Shown: positions 1-19,450 of the stretch, piece after piece
Position numbering within the stretch: position 1 is the stretch's first letter
Layout: every line of letters starts with the position of its first letter
DNA from: a virus
Lineage: Duplodnaviria; Heunggongvirae; Uroviricota; Caudoviricetes
Strand: one strand, 5' to 3'
Length of the DNA: 22,185 bases
IMG/VR virus record: IMGVR_UViG_2606217102_000016
Translations under genes and position numbers: made by a program
The notes under the pieces: generated by a model
The model's input: only the letters and a program-made list of their open reading frames with translations
Database searches by the model: none
What the model was told of the DNA's origin: nothing

Positions 1-1640
1 GTTCCGAAAGTTAAATAAGCATCTCCTAAAAATGTATAAACCGACCCATCGTATTTTTCAAAACGCAAACGACAACGAAGACCATCAGGAGCTTTAACCC
101 TGCATGAAACAGTGCAATACTTATTATCGCCACTAACATCAATCCCCCGGGATGCACTGCATGTATGCAGACTAAGTGCAGATGATTGTCCTGTCATATT
201 ATCTTTTGTTCGCATTTTGGCATATGAAAAACCAAATTCATCAACACCATTATTAGTTTTATCGATATTGCTGGTACTCGTCCATTCAGCGGGAGTATTG
301 GATTTAACAAAATAGTTAGTGCGCTGTCCTTCAATCAATAAACCTTCTTTTTCAAATCGTGGCTCATCAATTTTAGCAACACTAAATACGCCTGATTTAT
401 TGATATATGTGGCAGTTGATGCGCGTTTAAACTTAACAACCTTGTCGCCAGGCATCGTTATTTCATCATCACCAATAACAATTTTTTTATATGACGGCGA
501 AAAGCCCGTAATCATATCCAGTGAATCGTTAAACGGTATCCACACATCAGGCAGTGGCTGTAAGACATATTTATACGGTTCTGCTGCCTGGCTTGCATAC
601 TCTCTGGCTGCGTCTTCACTTGCTTTTGCAGCCATCTGGCTTGCAGCGGATGCTTTCGCCGAGTTAGTCGCCGCAGTCTCGCTCGCCTTTGCGTTGGTTT
701 CACTGGTTTTTGCTGCTTTTTGACTGTTAGCTGATGCAGTGGCAGAAGCAGCCGCCGCGCTTGCAGAACCAGCTGCGGCACTCTCGCTTTCAGCTGCTGC
801 ATCCTGACTGCTTTTCGCCGCAGTTTCGCTGGCTTTGGCATTCGTTTCGCTGGTCTTCGCTGCCGTCTGGCTGGACTTTGCGTTAGTTTCACTCGTCTTC
901 GCAGCTTTCTGGCTGTTAGCCGCAGCAGTTGCTGATCCAGCTGCTGAAGTCGCAGAACCGGCTGCCGCGCTCTCGCTTTGGGCTGCTGCAACCTGGCTGT
1001 TTTTTGCCGCAGTTTCACTGGCTTTGGCATTCGTTTCGCTGGTTTTCGCTGCCGTCTGGCTGGACTTTGCGTTGGTTTCGCTCGTCTTTGCGGCTGTCTC
1101 GCTATTTTTCGCGTTGGTTTCTGATTTTTTGGCTGCTGTCGCGGAGTTTGCCGATGCAGTCTGCGAGGTCGCTGCCGCCTGTGCACTATTAGCTGCATTC
1201 GTTTCTGAGGTTTTCGCCGCGTTCTTTGATGATGCCGCTGCAGTTTCGGATTTCTTTGCCGCCGCTGCGCTCTGAGAGGCGGCTTCGGCGTTGCGTGCCA
1301 CTTCTTCCACCATTGCCTCAAAACGACGCAATGCCTCCGGCATGACATCATCTTCCGTCATGGCACCGAGAAAATCATTCAGCGTACCTGGTCTGGAGCC
1401 TTCATAGACGGTAATGGTCCCGGCATGTGAAGGCGGAAAACCTTCAACCAGCAGGGTGACGCTGTACTGGCCATACTCAACATCCATGCTGTAACGTCCG
1501 GCTTCATCCGGATTTTCAGAAGCCACCGTGTTCACCAGTACCGTGGTGCTGTTACGCTTTGCCTTCAGTTGAATAGTGCAGTTCTGTATTGGTTTTCCCG
1601 CACCATCTTTCAGCACACCTGAGATTTTTACTGCTGCCAT
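1..1640 (-). CDS. stf: Side tail fibre protein (lambda Stf-like), N-terminal part; C-terminus lies beyond the left window edge
   Basis: Minus-strand translation from the ATG at 1640 (SD GGAG 6 nt upstream) gives MAAVKISGVLKDGAGKPIQNCTIQLKAKRNSTTVLVNTVASENPDEAGRYSMDVEYGQYSVTLLVEGFPPSHAGTITVYE..., matching the remembered lambda Stf N-terminus. It is followed by Ala/Ser/Thr-rich AAKTSETNAK repeats and then a globular region. The frame stays open to position 1. This ORF is absent from the supplied track because it has no stop in the window; the track ORFs 512..1351(-), 835..1275(+) and 929..1192(+) are other frames of the same repeat DNA. Confidence 0.85.
   Translation of the reverse strand, partial: MAAVKISGVLKDGAGKPIQNCTIQLKAKRNSTTVLVNTVASENPDEAGRYSMDVEYGQYSVTLLVEGFPPSHAGTITVYEGSRPGTLNDFLGAMTEDDVMPEALRRFEAMVEEVARNAEAASQSAAAAKKSETAAASSKNAAKTSETNAANSAQAAATSQTASANSATAAKKSETNAKNSETAAKTSETNAKSSQTAAKTSETNAKASETAAKNSQVAAAQSESAAAGSATSAAGSATAAANSQKAAKTSETNAKSSQTAAKTSETNAKASETAAKSSQDAAAESESAAAGSASAAAASATASANSQKAAKTSETNAKASETAATNSAKASAASQMAAKASEDAAREYASQAAEPYKYVLQPLPDVWIPFNDSLDMITGFSPSYKKIVIGDDEITMPGDKVVKFKRASTATYINKSGVFSVAKIDEPRFEKEGLLIEGQRTNYFVKSNTPAEWTSTSNIDKTNNGVDEFGFSYAKMRTKDNMTGQSSALSLHTCSASRGIDVSGDNKYCTVSCRVKAPDGLRCRLRFEKYDGSVYTFLGDAYLTFG
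640..1210 (-). repeat. Intragenic tandem repeats in stf (189-bp / 63-codon unit, plus shorter degenerate sub-repeats)
   Basis: The string ggctttggcattcgtttcgctgg...ctggctggactttgcgtt recurs at 831 and 1020, an offset of 189 bp, in frame. The encoded protein repeats AAKTSETNAKSSQTAAKTSETNAKASETAAK. Boundaries are approximate. Confidence 0.7.
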
Positions 1641-1651
1641 ATCCACTCCAC

Positions 1652-1678
1652 AAAAAAGCCCGCCTGAACCGGCGGGCT
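1652..1678 (-). terminator. Candidate rho-independent terminator between the lom-like remnant and stf
   Basis: On the minus strand the stem AGCCCGCC / GGCGGGCT (8 bp, loop GGTTCA) is followed by TTTTTTGTGG. It lies 27 nt downstream of the stop of the 1705..2601 ORF and just upstream of the stf SD and ATG. Confidence 0.5.
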
Positions 1679-1704
1679 GTCATAACACTGTGTTACCTGG
1701 CTAA

Positions 1705-2601
1705 TCAGAATTTATAACCGACACCAACGATGAAACCGTCAGTGCGCCAGTCGCCACTGCCGGAACCTTCATAAGCAATATCAATGGCCACGGATTCGGT
1801 CGGGTTAAACTGCACGCCAGCCCCCCATGCCAGAGACGTGTCGCTGTGGCGACCGTCATCACATCCGGTCAGCACATCGTGCGTTTTCCCCTTGTTGTCA
1901 GTTACGCGGATATAATCTCCGGAGAAAGTCGAAACACGGCTGTAAGCCATAACCGCCCTGAGTGTTTCTTCGCTTCCTGTCGCTTCATACTCCTGTTCTG
2001 CAGTCAGTAATTTGTAAACCAGTTGCGCCCAGGTCTGATACGCAGCAGCTGGCCCTTCCATCCAGAAACTGGCGATACGGGAGCGGCGCGGTTCACCGGA
2101 AACGTTGCCGTTACGATCAATGACCTGACCTTCACGCAACCAGACTCCTGCACTATTGAGCTCACGCTTTTTCTCCGCAGTGATAATGCCGCTGCAGTGC
2201 GGGCAAAGTAGATACGCCGCCTCACTGGCTTTAAAGGGATCCGGTTCATTACGGTAGCCGGTCATGGCATCCATAGCTGGCTGAAAATATTCACCGCAGT
2301 GCGGACATGGCCAGTACCAGCGGCGGCGGTCACCACGATTGTAAAGGGAAAGAATACCAGTCGTCGGTGGCGCTTCATGAGGCGACTTACGTCGCCATTT
2401 GCTGTCGCAGATGTCACGTCCCGGCGAGCTCTCCACCAGAGTCATCCCGGCGGACATAAATGTGGTGGTACGTTTTGAGGCCAGGGAGAAACCATCACCC
2501 TCGCTGTCGATATTCTCCGGAAAACGGTCGTAATCGGTTAAGGCGACAAACCGGTAATAAGCATCACCGATCCCGCTCACATTTGACATAAGCAACTCCA
2601 T
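1705..2601 (-). pseudogene. Chimeric remnant ORF: internal fragment of a terminase large subunit (lambda gpA family) fused in frame to the C-terminal part of a Lom/OmpX-family outer-membrane protein
   Basis: The 298-aa translation has an N-terminal two-thirds with ...DYDRFPENIDSEGDGFSLASKR...WYWPCPHCGEYF...YLLCPHCSG...VWLREGQVIDRNG...FWMEGPAAAYQTWAQLV, which parallels my memory of lambda gpA (GYDELAAFDDDIEQEGSPTFLGDKR...ACPHCGE...). The last ~80 aa, ...AVMAYSRVSTFSGDYIRVTDNKGKTHD...TSLAWGAGVQFNPTESVAIDIAYEGSGSGDWRTDGFIVGVGYKF, match the lambda Lom C-terminus almost residue for residue. There is no signal peptide and no terminase N-terminal ATPase region. The junction is near ...GSEETL|RAVMAYS. 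Confidence 0.6.
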
Positions 2602-3151
2602 CTGGCAGGTGAAAATCAGGTTTATTTATATATTTCAATTAATTGCAAACTGGTCTAATGACAGGAAGAAAAAAATATTGTACAGGTGAAAAGGGAAATA
2701 ACTTTTAATTATCAATAAATTACCAAACATGCTGCCGCCGCCATGGAAATGCAAAAACTAGCCTTTTTCCGCGACGCTCCCGCCCCGTGGCAGGGCCCCC
2801 CACTGGGAGGACCCGACAGCCTGACAACCGTGACGAGCATCTGTAACAGAGCTTTACATAATGGCATGGGGATAATTCAGAAGGACATCACAGCATGCCC
2901 ACACAAATTAGTGTGAGTGTCCTGTTTCTTACTACGCGCAGGACTGACGAGCATGAGGGGAAAATACGAGAACCGAAATGCCTTATCTTCAGAAATGCAG
3001 CCGGCATCCGAACTGGACGATATTGTAAATTCACCTAAATACGAGGCATTGCTGTAGTTGAATTGCATTGCTGTATTAGCCTGACAGTGACAGAATACGA
3101 TATTGACTCTGTCACTTGTGAAATGGTCAGAATGGTTAGCAGTTATGGTGA

Positions 3152-3358
3152 TCAGTCAACCACCAGGGAATAATCCTTCGTATTCTTATCGTGCTTTACT
3201 AACGCGGCCTCAATTGCCCTGAATGCTTCCAGAGACACTTGATGTTCTATACATGCAATTACAACATCCGGGTAACTCATCGAAATGGTGCTATTAAGCA
3301 TAGTTTTTACACGAACCTGCTCCTGGGAGGGGGCATCAGTGTATTGATCTTTATGCAT
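3152..3358 (-). CDS. Hypothetical small protein (68 aa), weak call
   Basis: ATG at 3358 with GGAG 8 nt upstream. The translation [57 protein letters not shown]... has protein-like composition. It sits in an otherwise non-coding ~1 kb stretch; no family recognised. Confidence 0.25.
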
Positions 3359-3651
3359 TTTGTCGCTCCATGCGTTTGCTCTTCACTTACGGCTAAAAAT
3401 ATAACGTCAAATCACTCAGCATGAAAGAGTTAAAGATTCAGCGCGTTTCCCTTACATAATCTGTCGTTTGTATTCTCTTCAGGCATACCGGAAAGACTAG
3501 GTATTGTCACACAACCAATACCATCGACAATCGAGATTTATACCTATTCGGTAATGTTTAAATATAACAAAACCCCGTAAAAACGAGGTTTATGGGTAAT
3601 TTGTATTGTTGAATAGCATCTGATGAGAAATTGATGCTAATACTAAACAGA

Positions 3652-3825
3652 CTAGATTAAATCAATCTTGATATCATAGCTTTCAAGACCAGTCATTTTT
3701 TCCCGTGCAGTAAACTGGATACTGGTAACTTCTTTCCCGGTCTTTTTCTTAAGCTCAATGATTTTTTTTGTTATATATTCAGAAATATCTGCTTCTGTTT
3801 TTGTTTTTAACTCTTCAATGTTCAT
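3652..3825 (-). CDS. gnsB: GnsB-family small protein (57 aa)
   Basis: Translation MNIEELKTKTEADISEYITKKIIELKKKTGKEVTSIQFTAREKMTGLESYDIKIDLI matches the GnsA/GnsB family as I remember it. SD AGAGGA precedes a tandem ATG-ATG; the second ATG (3825) has the better spacing. The track ORF 3652..3918 is an upstream in-frame extension. Confidence 0.8.
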   Translation of the reverse strand: MNIEELKTKTEADISEYITKKIIELKKKTGKEVTSIQFTAREKMTGLESYDIKIDLI

Positions 3826-3997
3826 CATTTCCTCTTTTAGTCTGTTATGACTTTCCTGGTACACAGTAGTGTCAATTATATGGAGCAAACGTATAAAAGA
3901 TAAGATGAAACATCGCAATAATCAACATACGACGGTCTAAATTTCACACAAACAGATAAAGATGATTATCATTTATTATCAATGCATTAGAATCAAA

Positions 3998-4228
3998 TCA
4001 ATTCAAGAGTCTCATTGCTGCTTCCAGAATTTCTTCTGAAGTTACATGTCGATCCGCTGCTACATAAATGACTTTATGATCTCCGGTCAGAGATGGAAAC
4101 CCTGCAGCCATTACAGTGAGGTGTGTTGTTTCGCCATTTGGATATTCACGCATGATGGTGTTAACTCCGGTCATCACTGGCACTACCATTGCTGGTTCAG
4201 AGTTAAAAAAAACTATTATTTTTTTCAT
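3998..4228 (-). CDS. ynfN: YnfN-like small prophage protein (start uncertain)
   Basis: The C-terminal two-thirds, MREYPNGETTHLTVMAAGFPSLTGDHKVIYVAADRHVTSEEILEAAMRLLN, matches my memory of Qin YnfN and its position between gnsB and cspI. None of the in-frame ATGs (4228, 4189, 4174, 4153) has a convincing SD, so the true start may be internal. Confidence 0.6.
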   Translation of the reverse strand: MKKIIVFFNSEPAMVVPVMTGVNTIMREYPNGETTHLTVMAAGFPSLTGDHKVIYVAADRHVTSEEILEAAMRLLN

Positions 4229-4300: not shown

Positions 4301-4516
4301 TCACTTTCTTAAATCTAACGATAGACGGCTAACATTTAAGTATTGTGAAATATTATCAAATGTAATCATCATTGATTTACAAAAGATACATTTTGCCCCG
4401 AAAGGATTCCTGTCAGAAACATCAAAAGATGATGTTCTATACTGAGAACCATGGCAACACGGGCATCTAAAGTGAATATGGTTTGTAATATTTTCTACCT
4501 CAAAGTGCCACAACAT
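4301..4516 (-). CDS. Candidate small zinc-ribbon protein (71 aa)
   Basis: Translation [71 protein letters not shown] has two Cys pairs (CPCC...CIFC), a zinc-ribbon-like pattern. The ATG at 4516 overlaps the cspI 3' end by 17 nt in another frame, there is no strong SD, and a terminator follows immediately. I recall small zinc-binding proteins annotated in Qin but cannot confirm identity. Confidence 0.3.
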
Positions 4517-4712
4517 GAACAGCCGCGGGGCCTTTAGGTCCGTTCTCAATACCAAATTCGACTTCCTGATTCTCAGTTAACGTTTTGAAATCGTTGCTCT
4601 GAATAGCTGAGAAATGGACAAACACATCTTTGCTACCATCTTTCGGCGTGATGAAACCAAAACCTTTTTCAGGGTTAAACCATTTCACTAAACCAGTCAT
4701 TTTGTTAGACAT
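4500..4712 (-). CDS. cspI: Cold-shock protein, CspA family (70 aa)
   Basis: Translation [70 protein letters not shown] contains the RNP1/RNP2 cold-shock motifs (KGFGFI, VFVHF). A tandem ATG at 4715/4712 is preceded by an AAGG SD. A long AT-rich upstream region (4716..5075) is consistent with the long 5'UTR typical of csp genes. Confidence 0.9.
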
Positions 4713-5075
4713 CATTATTACCTTTTGAAGAAGTTAGCCCTTGGGCAGAATGGTCCGAAAAAAAATATCAGAGAGAAAAACCAACAAGGAAATCTCAAGA
4801 GGTACAAATAATAAAATTATAACAATGACTGCTTCAGATAATTTTGTAACAAACCAGAACACCATTAACGCATGATTAACCAACCATAGCAAGGATTACT
4901 TTTGTAAAGAAAAACACACGAATGAAACAATAGCTTTATTTATTAATAAAACGTGTCATTCTGTCTAATGATCTTTTATCTTACCCTTAAGATTTCAAGG
5001 ATTTTGACTCATGGAAGAGTCCTTTTTATTTAAATTTCACATTCAGCGCTAAAAATAATCCGATTTAATATTAAT

Positions 5076-6103
<1,028 letters not shown>

Positions 6104-6216
6104 GGATATTTATCAGGATTTATCGGCTTCAAATCCCCGGATATGTTAAATCTTACCTCACCAGTGATGGGCACTGGCGGGAGGAGGATGTCAATCTGAT
6201 AAACACAGAGGCGACT

Positions 6217-6477
6217 ATGGATTACACAAATCTACCTAAACAAACTTTTGCTGATTTAATCGCACTCAGGCAAGCAGTCGTAGCTCTAATCAACTTGTTG
6301 CCGGAGAAGGAAAAGGAATTAGTTAAAGCGCTTCTTAACAGAACTGCCGCCGATTTTTCATCATATCCACTGACAGATGACCTTGCGGACCTTCCTGAAT
6401 TAATTGCAGCGTCCGCCAATAAGCTTACTGAAGAGATTTACCCTCCTCAAAAATCTTCACAAAATTCCTGCGAGTAA
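6217..6477 (+). CDS. Hypothetical 86-aa ORF on the opposite strand inside the lysis cassette (weak call)
   Basis: ATG at 6217 with GAGG 6 nt upstream. Translation MDYTNLPKQTFADLIALRQAVVALINLLPEKEKELVKALLNRTAADFSSYPLTDDLADLPELIAASANKL... is helical and protein-like. It overlaps the 3' end of the minus-strand gene 6425..6976 by ~50 nt. Confidence 0.25.
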   Translation: MDYTNLPKQTFADLIALRQAVVALINLLPEKEKELVKALLNRTAADFSSYPLTDDLADLPELIAASANKLTEEIYPPQKSSQNSCE

Positions 6478-6976
6478 CTTCAATGCAATAATCGTAAAAC
6501 GCCGCAAACTGCTCATCGCGGCGTTTTTTTTCATCTTCAGAAGGAATCAGCACCGACAATTTTTTATTCAGATCAGCGACGCTGCCCTCCAGTTTTTCAA
6601 TGGGCGATTCAATATCATCTTTTTCTGACCGCAATGCCGTCGGTGGCGTCTTCAGAGAACCAGTAATTCTTCCCGGTAGCTTTCCTTTGTAGGTTATCCA
6701 CACATTCTGCGCCTCTAAAATTATGGGGCGCTTTTCCGGCGACTGCTCATCCCCTTCACATAACCCGGCAGCAACATCCAGGAAGACCTGTCTGATGCTC
6801 CTTCTGGCTGCTGCCTCATAAAACTCCAGCGCGGCACCTTCAACACGGTCCAGCGAGATGTCCAGGTCAAAAATTTCACCGTCAAAGTGTTTTTTGTCCC
6901 GTAAGGCTACAGTTACCGCCACTTTATTCTCAAAATTGCGAACTCCTTTCACAACCAGTTCATAGTCTTGAGTCAT
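6425..6976 (-). CDS. Hypothetical protein between holin and endolysin (183 aa)
   Basis: ATG at 6976 lies 5 nt after the holin stop, with a GAGAG SD. The position is that of ydfR in Qin, but this protein is longer than I remember YdfR to be. No motif recognised. Confidence 0.6.
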   Translation of the reverse strand: MTQDYELVVKGVRNFENKVAVTVALRDKKHFDGEIFDLDISLDRVEGAALEFYEAAARRSIRQVFLDVAAGLCEGDEQSPEKRPIILEAQNVWITYKGKLPGRITGSLKTPPTALRSEKDDIESPIEKLEGSVADLNKKLSVLIPSEDEKKRRDEQFAAFYDYCIEVTRRNFVKIFEEGKSLQ

Positions 6977-6980
6977 TGGA

Positions 6981-7196
6981 TTACTCTCTTCTCGCAACCT
7001 TACGCCTGTCTTCTTTAATCTTGAAATAAAGGTTTGTCAGATACGTCAGCATGCCAAATACCAGACTACCCAATACACCTATTGCCGCCCACTGTGAGGG
7101 CGTGACTTTATCGAGCAACTGTAAAAACCAGTAGCCAGCACTGCCTGCAGAGGTGCTGTAGGCGATGCCCGTTGTTAACTTATCCATGGATTTCAT
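6981..7196 (-). CDS. Class II holin / pinholin (phage 21 S-like), dual-start motif
   Basis: Translation [71 protein letters not shown] (71 aa) closely matches my memory of S21/EssQ. Two starts (M1 at 7196, M4 at 7187) give the antiholin/holin pair. A strong SD GGAGGTGAGG precedes it. The track ORF 6981..7280 is an in-frame upstream extension. Confidence 0.85.
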
Positions 7197-7286
7197 AGCC
7201 TCACCTCCGCAGATAACGGATGGTGTACACGGTTTGGTTCGAAGAAGGAAAGAAGTTACATTAGCGTAAGGCCCGAACATCTATTC

Positions 7287-7317
7287 AAAAAGAAAAACGC
7301 CAGCAATTATTCTGGCG
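7287..7317 (-). terminator. Candidate rho-independent terminator downstream of the AraC-family gene
   Basis: On the minus strand CGCCAG-AATAATTG-CTGGCG is followed by TTTTTCTTTTT. It lies 70 nt downstream of the AraC-family gene stop and ~90 nt upstream of the holin start. Confidence 0.5.
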
Positions 7318-7386
7318 TAGCTAAAAATATCGTATAATCTTACACTTCAAAAAATAACTTTATAAAATACCATCACATCATATCTT

Positions 7387-12597: not shown

Positions 12598-12753
12598 TTA
12601 CTCCTCAGGTTCGTAAGCTGTGAAGACAGCGACCTCCGTCTGCCCGGTTCGGATTCGTACCTCGCAGAGGTCTTTCCTCGTTACCAGTGCCGTCACTATG
12701 ACGGTTAAACAGATGACGATCAGGGCGATTAACATCGCCTTTTGCTGCTTCAT
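12598..12753 (-). CDS. hokD: Hok-family type I toxin (51 aa membrane peptide)
   Basis: Translation MKQQKAMLIALIVICLTVIVTALVTRKDLCEVRIRTGQTEVAVFTAYEPEE is a textbook Hok/Gef peptide and near-identical to HokD/RelF as I remember it. SD AAGGAGAAG. The track ORF 12598..12810 is an in-frame 19-codon upstream extension. Confidence 0.85.
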   Translation of the reverse strand: MKQQKAMLIALIVICLTVIVTALVTRKDLCEVRIRTGQTEVAVFTAYEPEE

Positions 12754-12874
12754 AGCCTGCTTCTCCTTGCCTTTCGGCACGTAAGAGGCTAACCTACATA
12801 TGTCTAGCATGAAATTGGCCTCAGATTAATGTTAAGCGTCTTGCAGGACGCGTAATGTTAACTGGGGCTTTTCT

Positions 12875-12910
12875 CTATCTGCCGTTGGTGTTCATGCCCG
12901 AGGCAGATAG
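12875..12910. promoter_or_regulatory. Inverted repeat in the hok leader region (candidate mRNA 5' structural element or Sok target region)
   Basis: CTATCTGCC (12875..12883) pairs with GGCAGATAG (12902..12910) across an 18-nt loop, ~120 nt upstream of the hok ATG on the transcribed strand. hok mRNAs are known to carry extensive 5' secondary structure; the specific element is not assigned. Confidence 0.3.
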
Positions 12911-13427
12911 CCTCAAGCACCCGCAGCCATTCTACTTAACTACCGTTACCTCGCCAATGTGAAATCAGTCAGAAAGGCGATCCATAAGAACAATAGCAAG
13001 ACAATAAATCGCCATTACAGCCGTAATAGCCAGCGCACATTTGAGAACCAGCACCACAACCTCCTGTATTGGACGTAGACCAGTCCTGATGAATATGAGG
13101 CTGTCTCGTCAGTGATTCAATACAACTATTGGGTATAGTTTCTCTGATTTTTTCTGTGGAAATGGGGCACAACCACTAGTCACCACCAGCACTTCTTTTA
13201 ATACGCAAAGTCCGACACAAGCTAACCTTCTAGTCCGCTTTGAGCGAAAAACAGCCATAATTTAGTGCCACGTATATAATGATAGAGCTATTCAAGCTAG
13301 CAATTCACATGTAAAAATTCAGAGGGTAGAAGCACATAGTTATAAATGTTGGCTCCATCGACAAATTGCGGTCTCAAGTACATTTATTAATGTTGCCCCC
13401 GCATTAACAAATCATCAAGGTGACGAC

Positions 13428-18964: not shown

Positions 18965-19450
18965 AACTGTGGTGATTTTAAGGATACCACCTCGCCTGAC
19001 GTGGTTAAAAGCAGGCACACAACACGAAAGCGCACGGCGAAGTTCGTCTCACTGTACGGTGTCGTTAAATTTAATTCGACCGTGCGCTTCCGGTTGTGGC
19101 AGCCCGCAAAATGGCGCGGCGGTAAGTATGGCGGGGTTATTCCTTCCCCGTTGAGGACACCGAGTTGTCAGGTTGACCATACGCTTAAGTGACAACCCCG
19201 CTGCAACGCCCTCTGTTATCAATTTTCTGGTGGTGTTTGGCGGTATCAGTTTTACTCCGTGACTGCTCTGCCGCCGTTTTTAAAGTGAATTTTGTGATGC
19301 GGTGAATGCGGCTAAGCGCACGCGGAACAGTTAAAACCAAAAACAGTGTTATGGGTGGATTCTCTGTATCCGGCGTTAATTGTTAACTGGTTAACGTCAC
19401 CTGGAGGCACCAGGCACTGCATCACAAAATTCATTGTTGAGGACGCGATA

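Follow-up and report, generated by a model that had tools for sequence, protein, structure and literature searches.

Introduction

How does a single open reading frame come to hold part of a phage large terminase (TerL) and part of Lom, when the two genes lie 17 kb apart in an intact relative? The frame is on the minus strand of a 22,185-nucleotide stretch of viral DNA (IMG/VR record IMGVR_UViG_2606217102_000016), and "the window" below means the whole of that stretch. The frame is read here as an in-frame pseudogene of three parts, lodged in a cryptic lambdoid prophage of the Qin type in E. coli and made by two deletions during ordinary prophage decay (probability about 0.93). A second question is what placed the breakpoints. 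In other strains this locus has many different deletion alleles, a fact that the original prediction had missed.

Anatomy of the chimeric open reading frame

The ORF finder reports the frame at 1705..2601 on the minus strand, with 298 aa from an upstream ATG at 2601. Its translation is composed of three parts, namely codons 1-12 of a small-terminase (TerS, DUF1441) gene, TerL residues 166-366, and Lom residues 119-199. The features of this end of the window are:

1705..2589, minus strand: chimeric pseudogene ORF, 294 aa from the native TerS start codon
2559..2599, minus strand: start of the DUF1441 small-terminase gene, 11 codons, with ATG at 2587-2589 and Shine-Dalgarno GGAG at 2596-2599
2554..2558, minus strand: junction A, exact microhomology ATTAC, which is Tyr12 of TerS and Tyr165 of TerL
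1952..2553, minus strand: internal gpA-type TerL fragment, residues 166-366, with two CPHC motifs
1949..1957, minus strand: junction B, exact microhomology TAT at 1949-1951
1705..1948, minus strand: lom fragment, Lom residues 120-199 and the stop codon (Pfam Ail_Lom 117-199/199)
1657..1678, minus strand: intrinsic-terminator-like hairpin and T-run just 3' of the lom stop, kept
1..1640, minus strand: 5' part of stf, which starts at 1640, extends beyond the window, and normally follows lom

On the 298-aa frame, Pfam GpA_ATPase covers aa 10-154 (profile 123-247 of 247, E 1e-36), GpA_nuclease covers aa 176-218 (profile 1-41 of 294), and Ail_Lom covers aa 216-298 (profile 117-199 of 199, E 1.6e-41). 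The PHROGs calls, terminase large subunit and Lom, are concordant with Pfam. The frame also contains the CPHCGE motif. The original prediction had described a two-part chimera, with an internal portion of a lambda-gpA-type large terminase followed by about 80 residues of Lom C-terminus. Both of these parts are borne out, but the third, TerS part, which comes from a 995-bp deletion, was overlooked.

The opening 12 codons, MSNVSGIGDAYY, are those of the DUF1441 gene, and the DUF1441 protein of the intact sibling prophage L004, described below, matches phrog_141 'terminase small subunit' (E 8e-65). The TerL piece is identical to L004 5775-6384 over 610/610 nt and is 99.5-99.8% identical to phages cdtI, Tritos, and HannyBb. 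The lom piece matches lom of L004 at 251/253 nt and 79/80 aa. The Shine-Dalgarno that was expected upstream of the frame is present and is native to the small-terminase gene. No sigma-70-like promoter was found within 2 kb of the ORF.

Key elements of both parent families are gone. A gpA-type large terminase (PF05876 + PF20454) requires a Walker A motif, which is GPARTGKT at residue 72 of the intact TerL; the fragment in the chimera begins at 166, 94 residues later. The C-terminal endonuclease domain is represented by the first ~41 of 294 profile positions only. Members of the Ail/Lom beta-barrel family (PF06316) possess a signal peptide and a complete barrel of ~199 aa. The N-terminal MRKVCAAIFSAAICLAVSGAPAWA of intact Lom is absent from the chimera, and the barrel before Pfam profile position 117 is also gone. 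With Lom residues before 119 missing, the Lom part is signal-less, as anticipated. With Walker A, nearly all of the nuclease domain, and the signal peptide of Lom absent, the product is very probably non-functional, as judged from these missing motifs.

The intact sibling and the two deletions

By BLAST against 5,426 complete E. coli genomes, the window belongs to a prophage of the Qin type inserted at ydfJ. Strain AST19 has the identical allele, surrounded by ydfJ, pinQ, ydfK, cspI, rzpQ, ydfU, rem, and hokD. Marker genes, marker RNAs, and chromosomal site are all those of Qin. The RNAs found in the window with Rfam are:

4454-4870: cspA-type thermoregulator leader, upstream of cspI
12748-12922: sok (hokD locus)
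19225-19276: DicF

An intact prophage occupies the same ydfJ locus in strain CFSAN061763 and is called L004 here. Its late genes follow the order TerS-TerL-portal-capsid-tail genes-J-lom-stf. The DUF1441 gene is at 4749-5276, TerL at 5285-7384, J at 19703-23182, and lom at 23250-23849. Between TerL and J are the portal, protease-capsid, tail, and tape-measure genes, and stf comes after lom. Window positions 1949-22185 match CFSAN061763 at 100.0%. Around the chimera, the alignment falls into three segments:

Window 2551-4000: L004 3338-4787, 99.93% identity
Window 1949-2558: L004 5775-6384, 100% identity
Window 315-1957: L004 23597-25239, 95.7% overall, with the lom part at 251/253

The window is therefore collinear with the intact relative save for clean gaps, and the parent genes are separate there, as is expected of a deletion scar. 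Deletion A is 995 bp and in frame. It joins TerS ...GCT TAT TAC to TerL TAC CGG TTT..., that is, codon 12 of TerS to R166 of TerL. Deletion B is 17,221 bp, also in frame, and joins TerL ...GCG GTT AT(C) to lom (AT)G GCT TAC..., with endpoints at TerL codon 366/367 and lom codon 119. Its TAT microhomology sits in an 8/9 match of GGCGGTTAT in TerL with GGCGGGTAT in lom. Gone with it are the remainder of TerL, the genes for portal, capsid, tail, tape measure, and J, and the 5' portion of lom.

Most of what had been proposed for this scar holds. The loss of ~17 kb of morphogenesis genes is exactly 17,221 bp relative to L004. The proposed recombination scar in a cryptic prophage is located, by alignment to L004, within a 3-bp microhomology. 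The comparison with an intact relative that had been recommended returned short shared sequences at both joins, ATTAC at A and TAT at B. A TerL/Lom fusion point is real, but it had been placed at GSEETL/RAVMAYS and lies three residues further right, at ...EETLRAV/MAYSRV. In the protein, the join is composed of TerL V366, a hybrid Met codon, and Lom A120. Upstream, the terminase N-terminus is gone as described, but the small-terminase gene is not wholly lost, as its Shine-Dalgarno, ATG, and 12 codons stay.

The sequence of events would be as follows. A prophage resembling the intact CFSAN061763 one at ydfJ would be the ancestral state. Deletion A would fuse TerS codon 12 to TerL codon 166 at the shared ATTAC. 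Deletion B would fuse TerL codon 366/367 to lom codon 119, at the TAT that the two genes have in common within GGCGGnTAT. The result would be a 294-aa frame headed by the ribosome-binding site of TerS and running to the stop and terminator of lom. The chance that both joins fall in frame is about 1 in 9, and selection is not needed to explain the open frame.

The chimera is a precise marker. Its flank is 99.9-100% identical to the intact sibling, which makes the loss of the morphogenesis genes a recent one. By itself it carries little weight, being one more scar in a well-known cryptic prophage and already present in public databases.

The stf flank has a partly different history, as its 95.7% identity to the sibling implies. 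In window 315-1500, stf is ~95.7% identical to the intact sibling but 99.85% identical to AST19, which has both deletion junctions. The tail-fibre segment would therefore have been exchanged by recombination after the deletions. This gene also has internal repeats of ~250 bp (668-917 and 858-1106, 83% identical).

The region upstream of the chimera

The DNA upstream of the frame had been described as low-coding with a GC-rich island. The stretch is composed of what is probably the native cos region and of a conserved phage ORF:

2740..2830, minus strand: GC-rich island and probable cos region; window 2785 is where the cdtI record is linearised
3152..3358, minus strand: conserved 68-aa phage ORF, phrog_657, annotated in all relatives

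Window 2551-2785 corresponds to cdtI 1-235 at 97.4% identity. The minus strand around window 2774-2785 has the sequence ...CCACG/GGGCGGGAGCGTCGCGG, similar to the lambda left end, GGGCGGCGACCTCGCGG. The island is probably a cos region with a lambda-like cosN, and the cryptic prophage would then still hold its packaging site. Conservation of the 68-aa ORF marks the upstream stretch as native prophage DNA.

AST19 has an IS3 insertion at the position of window ~3568-3572, where the window has none. Copies of IS3 near cos are likewise found at this locus in E. coli B/AS19, PK8276, and EC931, a pattern suggesting that the cos-proximal stretch is prone to IS3 insertion. The Qin locus also occurs with two TerS/TerL modules, type a with a DUF1441 protein of 175 aa and type b with one of 164 aa (L137 = CFSAN018748, L133, L134, L145). 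The TerL genes of the two types are ~72-79% identical at the DNA level, yet the DNA on either side is otherwise near-identical. The pattern is one of module swapping where cos meets the terminase genes, near L004 ~4586.

Distribution of the allele

Instead of a scar, the frame might be a genuine two-domain gene under selection, or else an assembly artefact. The frame is open over both joins, and the exact 294-aa sequence is public as P0121 on 15 contigs, where it is named 'phage terminase large subunit family protein'. Against an artefact, the ORF region is 100% identical in the closed AST19 chromosome, which has the same junctions. Against a genuine gene, the intact sibling has the two parents as distinct genes with 17 kb between them, and the key motifs of both families are missing from the product. 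Junction A occurs in 1/5,426 complete genomes and junction B likewise in 1/5,426, the genome being AST19 in both cases. The AST19 allele is annotated as two PGAP pseudogenes, 'terminase gpA endonuclease subunit, missing C-terminus' and 'Ail/Lom, missing N-terminus'.

Homologues tell the same story. Full-length homologues with the same architecture in intact phages had been named as the finding that would overturn the scar. A search of 5.8 billion proteins returned 468 homologues, with coverage given for the best 120, and the highest query coverage among these listed matches is about 79%. In the phage collection searched, the TerL and lom parts match separate places and never both together, and no phage there has a homologue built in this way. 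Among the listed matches, functional phages thus lack a conserved full-length homologue. The only other TerL-Lom protein found, P0076, comes from another deletion allele of this degraded prophage. A selected gene or an artefact is very improbable on these grounds, and the frame is best read as a deletion scar.

Other deletion alleles at the locus

Many other strains have TerL fused to the tape measure, capsid, J, lom, stf, or tfa at the same place. Such fusions are routine at this locus. The alleles identified, in L004 coordinates, are:

GmM066: TerL 7282::lom 23559
H6: TerL 6672::J 22846
EC0026B: TerL 6259::J 23107
TB06052: TerL 6383::23859
ZY22049: TerL 6078::lom 23604
H2: TerS 4895::TerL 5776, plus ~6109::~20725
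HS: TerL 5662::J 20536
573: two junctions
IPCEC31 and E14: ~7574::lom
20AR0300, D2, and ZH177: second TerL type ('b'), with separate junctions

Protein chimeras with various partners (P0012, P0015, P0076, P0085, P0088, P0035, P0070) belong to the same series. Those deposited as in-frame chimeras are P0012 (TerL::tape measure), P0015 and P0085 (TerL::Tfa), P0076 (TerL::Lom), P0088 and P0070 (TerL::J), and P0113 (TerL::Stf).

The Logan contigs that encode P0012 (L010-L012) contain the TerL fragment L004 5765-6384, almost exactly that of the window, fused to the tape-measure gene. Their context differs, with bor upstream and sodC among the tail genes. Several Lom-family proteins of 259-299 aa (P0078, P0093, P0102) have internal tandem duplications, and one duplication boundary (…IAYE/AYSRV…) is within a few bases of the lom breakpoint of the window.

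Recurrent breakpoints and their sequence signature

The set of junctions analysed is made up of 26 IS-free deletion junctions, almost all at the Qin locus in other strains. IS3- and ISEc31-associated alleles (E. coli B/AS19, 300490, GF4, CFSAN018748, PCN061) were set aside. The same few sites are reused with different partners:

TerL 5776-5779: the window, H2, and L010
TerL 6382-6384: the window (lom), L010 (tape measure), and TB06052 (downstream of lom)
TerL 6671: H6, 573, P0076, and probably P0113
TerL 6256: EC0026B and P0015
L004 7573: IPCEC31 and E14
lom 23603: the window and ZY22049
One tfa site: P0015 and P0085

Further partners of the TerL 6384 and 5779 sites were sought in viral contigs and metagenomes with 'not-intact' IUPAC patterns, and none was found. 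With the plain pattern, the 120 viral contigs examined gave intact terminases and nothing else. Few truncated TerL records surfaced in a spread sample of BLAST matches.

The crossover falls in a TA dinucleotide at 18/26 junctions, and TA makes up 3.4% of the dinucleotides in the region. In nine junctions, TA is the sole homology. Of the 17 TA junctions for which both parents are known, 15 have in each parent, and on the same strand, a C at exactly -4 relative to the TA; with a null of 15% per pair this gives P ~5e-11, in a pair test that counts recurrent sites more than once. The first 14 junctions alone had 12/14 (P ~9e-9), a number that 0 of 200,000 simulations reached. C at -4 and G at -2 are the sole signals when offsets 1-8 and all four bases are compared. 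Counting unique sites, CNNNTA is present on at least one strand in 21/23, vs 48% of 647 background TA sites; with three further sites added by hand count, this becomes 24/26. Sites added after the idea had formed all fit, first eight and then the six parental sites of three further junctions. C at -3 (register CNNT/A) was also considered and is not enriched, at 15/23 vs 53% background.

Few positions would be eligible under such a rule. In the TerS-TerL-W segment, 24/96 TA sites are CNGNTA, including 4/5 of the recurrent sites of that segment, and ~24-40 of 2,845 positions are eligible. With so few eligible sites, recurrence of breakpoints is expected.

Both junctions of the window fit the motif, and all four of their parental sites carry C(-4). 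The parents of junction B are gggCgGt/TA (TerL) and ggCgGg/TA (lom), on the late-gene coding strand. Those of junction A are CCGG/TA (TerL) and CCAG/TA (TerS), on the strand opposite to it. Two TA junctions (HS and L010-right) do not fit the C(-4) rule. A further 8/26 junctions are not of the TA type, including all four found via TerL type-b protein chimeras. No description of the signature was found in the literature searched. It is a statistically strong but mechanistically unproven lead, drawn from aligned parental sequences.

Mechanism of the deletions

The deletions may be of the ordinary microhomology type, in which replication slippage or RecBCD-dependent alternative end joining acts at short direct repeats and no site-specific enzyme takes part. 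Both junctions of the window do lie in short repeats, ATTAC and a TAT within an 8/9 match, and several other junctions have microhomologies of 3-7 bp and follow no TA rule. By estimate, a comparison of a 2-kb with a 17-kb segment would yield about 3,600 chance matches of 8/9. Matches this common leave the reuse of the same nucleotides with three partners unexplained by microhomology alone. Annealing does not account for the nine junctions in which TA is the only homology, nor does it predict a pattern specific to base, offset, and strand, such as C(-4)/G(-2). Microhomology as the whole explanation is possible but doubtful. Chi sites as RecBCD stop points were also considered, and the prophage segment has none.

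The breaks could instead be the work of site-specific single-strand cleavage followed by mis-religation, most likely by topoisomerase I (TopA), a tentative reading held at less than even odds. TopA would cut 5'-C-N-N-N/T-A at two distant sites on one strand. The 3'-OH of one site would be sealed to the enzyme-linked 5' end of the other, and replication would fix the deletion. Cross-religation of two same-strand sites would explain both the strand concordance and the recurrence. This proposal concerns the mechanism of deletion and is compatible with the scar explanation.

Crossovers at topoisomerase I cleavage sites in non-homologous recombination have been described for eukaryotic and viral type IB enzymes. 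No paper that ties a bacterial type IA topoisomerase to prophage deletion junctions was found in the literature searched.

Several observations favour the TopA proposal: the excess of crossovers in TA, the same-strand C(-4) in both parents, the absence of other enriched bases besides G(-2), the fit of later-added sites and of both window junctions, and the reuse of sites with different partners, as expected from few eligible positions. Every in vitro cleavage site of wild-type E. coli TopoI has C at -4, and the selectivity of Topo III differs (PMC3467081). The C(-4) and crossover TA of the junction parents match the published selectivity (PMC3467081; PMC9352719), but C(-4) is counted here from the TA and in the TopoI rule from the scissile bond.

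Other observations weigh against it. The link to the enzyme is one of motif resemblance. The published in-vivo motif is AT-rich (TCNTTA/T), whereas the junction sites prefer G at -2, which is not part of the published E. coli TopoI motif. The 8/26 junctions without TA imply that at least one other mechanism operates, and HS and L010-right misfit despite having TA. Recurrent sites enter the pair test more than once, whereas the count of 21/23 against a 48% background is of unique sites. An alternative nicking enzyme of similar short specificity, e.g., a prophage HNH nuclease, may be responsible.

Other enzymes were compared with the junctions and set aside. Pseudo-sites of Pin/Gin-type invertases, the targets of IS5 (YTAR) and IS630 (CTAG), the preferences of RuvC and RusA, and the lambda Int core show no fit when their consensus sequences are compared by eye with the junction sequences. 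DNA gyrase, or any dyad-symmetric enzyme, is disfavoured, as the motif is mostly on one strand and partners agree in strand.

A broader claim would be that most deletions in this prophage family occur at few same-strand 5'-C-N-G-N/T-A sites that are a cleavage signature of E. coli TopoI and not random microhomology. On motif likeness this is a speculative generalisation, with the odds against it. If it were true, natural prophage decay would record topoisomerase-I-mediated illegitimate recombination in bacteria, with the chimera of the window as one product. The motif, if it reflects topoisomerase I, would offer a molecular mechanism for the whittling down of prophages and a tractable system for bacterial illegitimate recombination. 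The deletions at the Qin locus form a natural series, independent of one another and each with its parental sequence known.

Number of deletion steps

The 17.2-kb gap may have arisen in one step or in nested steps. In the nested case, TerL would first have been joined to the tape-measure gene, and GGCGGTTATGG at that junction would later have recombined with GGCGGGTATGG in lom. L010-L012 supply a model for the first step: their TerL fragment (L004 5765-6384) is almost exactly that of the window and passes into the tape-measure gene at the TAT used in the window. The tape-measure site GGTGGGTATGG matches the lom site GGCGGGTATGG at 10/11 positions, and the TerL::tape-measure junction matches the lom site equally well (10/11). 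Against nesting, L010-L012 are in a different prophage context (bor, sodC) with a different left end. No intermediate is found at the Qin locus of close relatives, and the closest relatives are intact or have unrelated junctions. Nested steps are improbable on this evidence. A single 17.2-kb step and nested steps cannot be told apart from the junction sequence, and we infer the order and number of steps, like the enzyme behind the breaks, from these comparisons.

Comparison with known systems

The prophage of the window shares its chromosomal site with the Qin cryptic prophage (RefSeq), along with DicF, hokD/sok, rem, ydfU, and cspI. Also shared are rzpQ/rrrQ, gnsB, ynfN, and pinQ/ydfK beyond stf. 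Compared with other Qin alleles, the present one keeps the cos region and the TerS start and has a TerS'-TerL'-'lom fusion; other strains have a full prophage or other deletions at Qin. Qin of K-12 carries the Nu1-type nohA instead.

The CFSAN061763 prophage and phages cdtI (NC_009514), Tritos, and HannyBb share with the window a TerL piece that is 99.5-100% identical and the order TerS-TerL-...-J-lom-stf. They differ in that they keep a 700-aa TerL, a 199-aa Lom, and all head and tail genes, whereas the window has lost 995 + 17,221 bp. TerL-fusion pseudogenes of other degraded lambdoid prophages are products of the same process and often have the same TerL breakpoints, but their partners and junctions differ. 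The combination of the TerS start, TerL 166-366, and Lom 119-199 is found only in this allele and in AST19.
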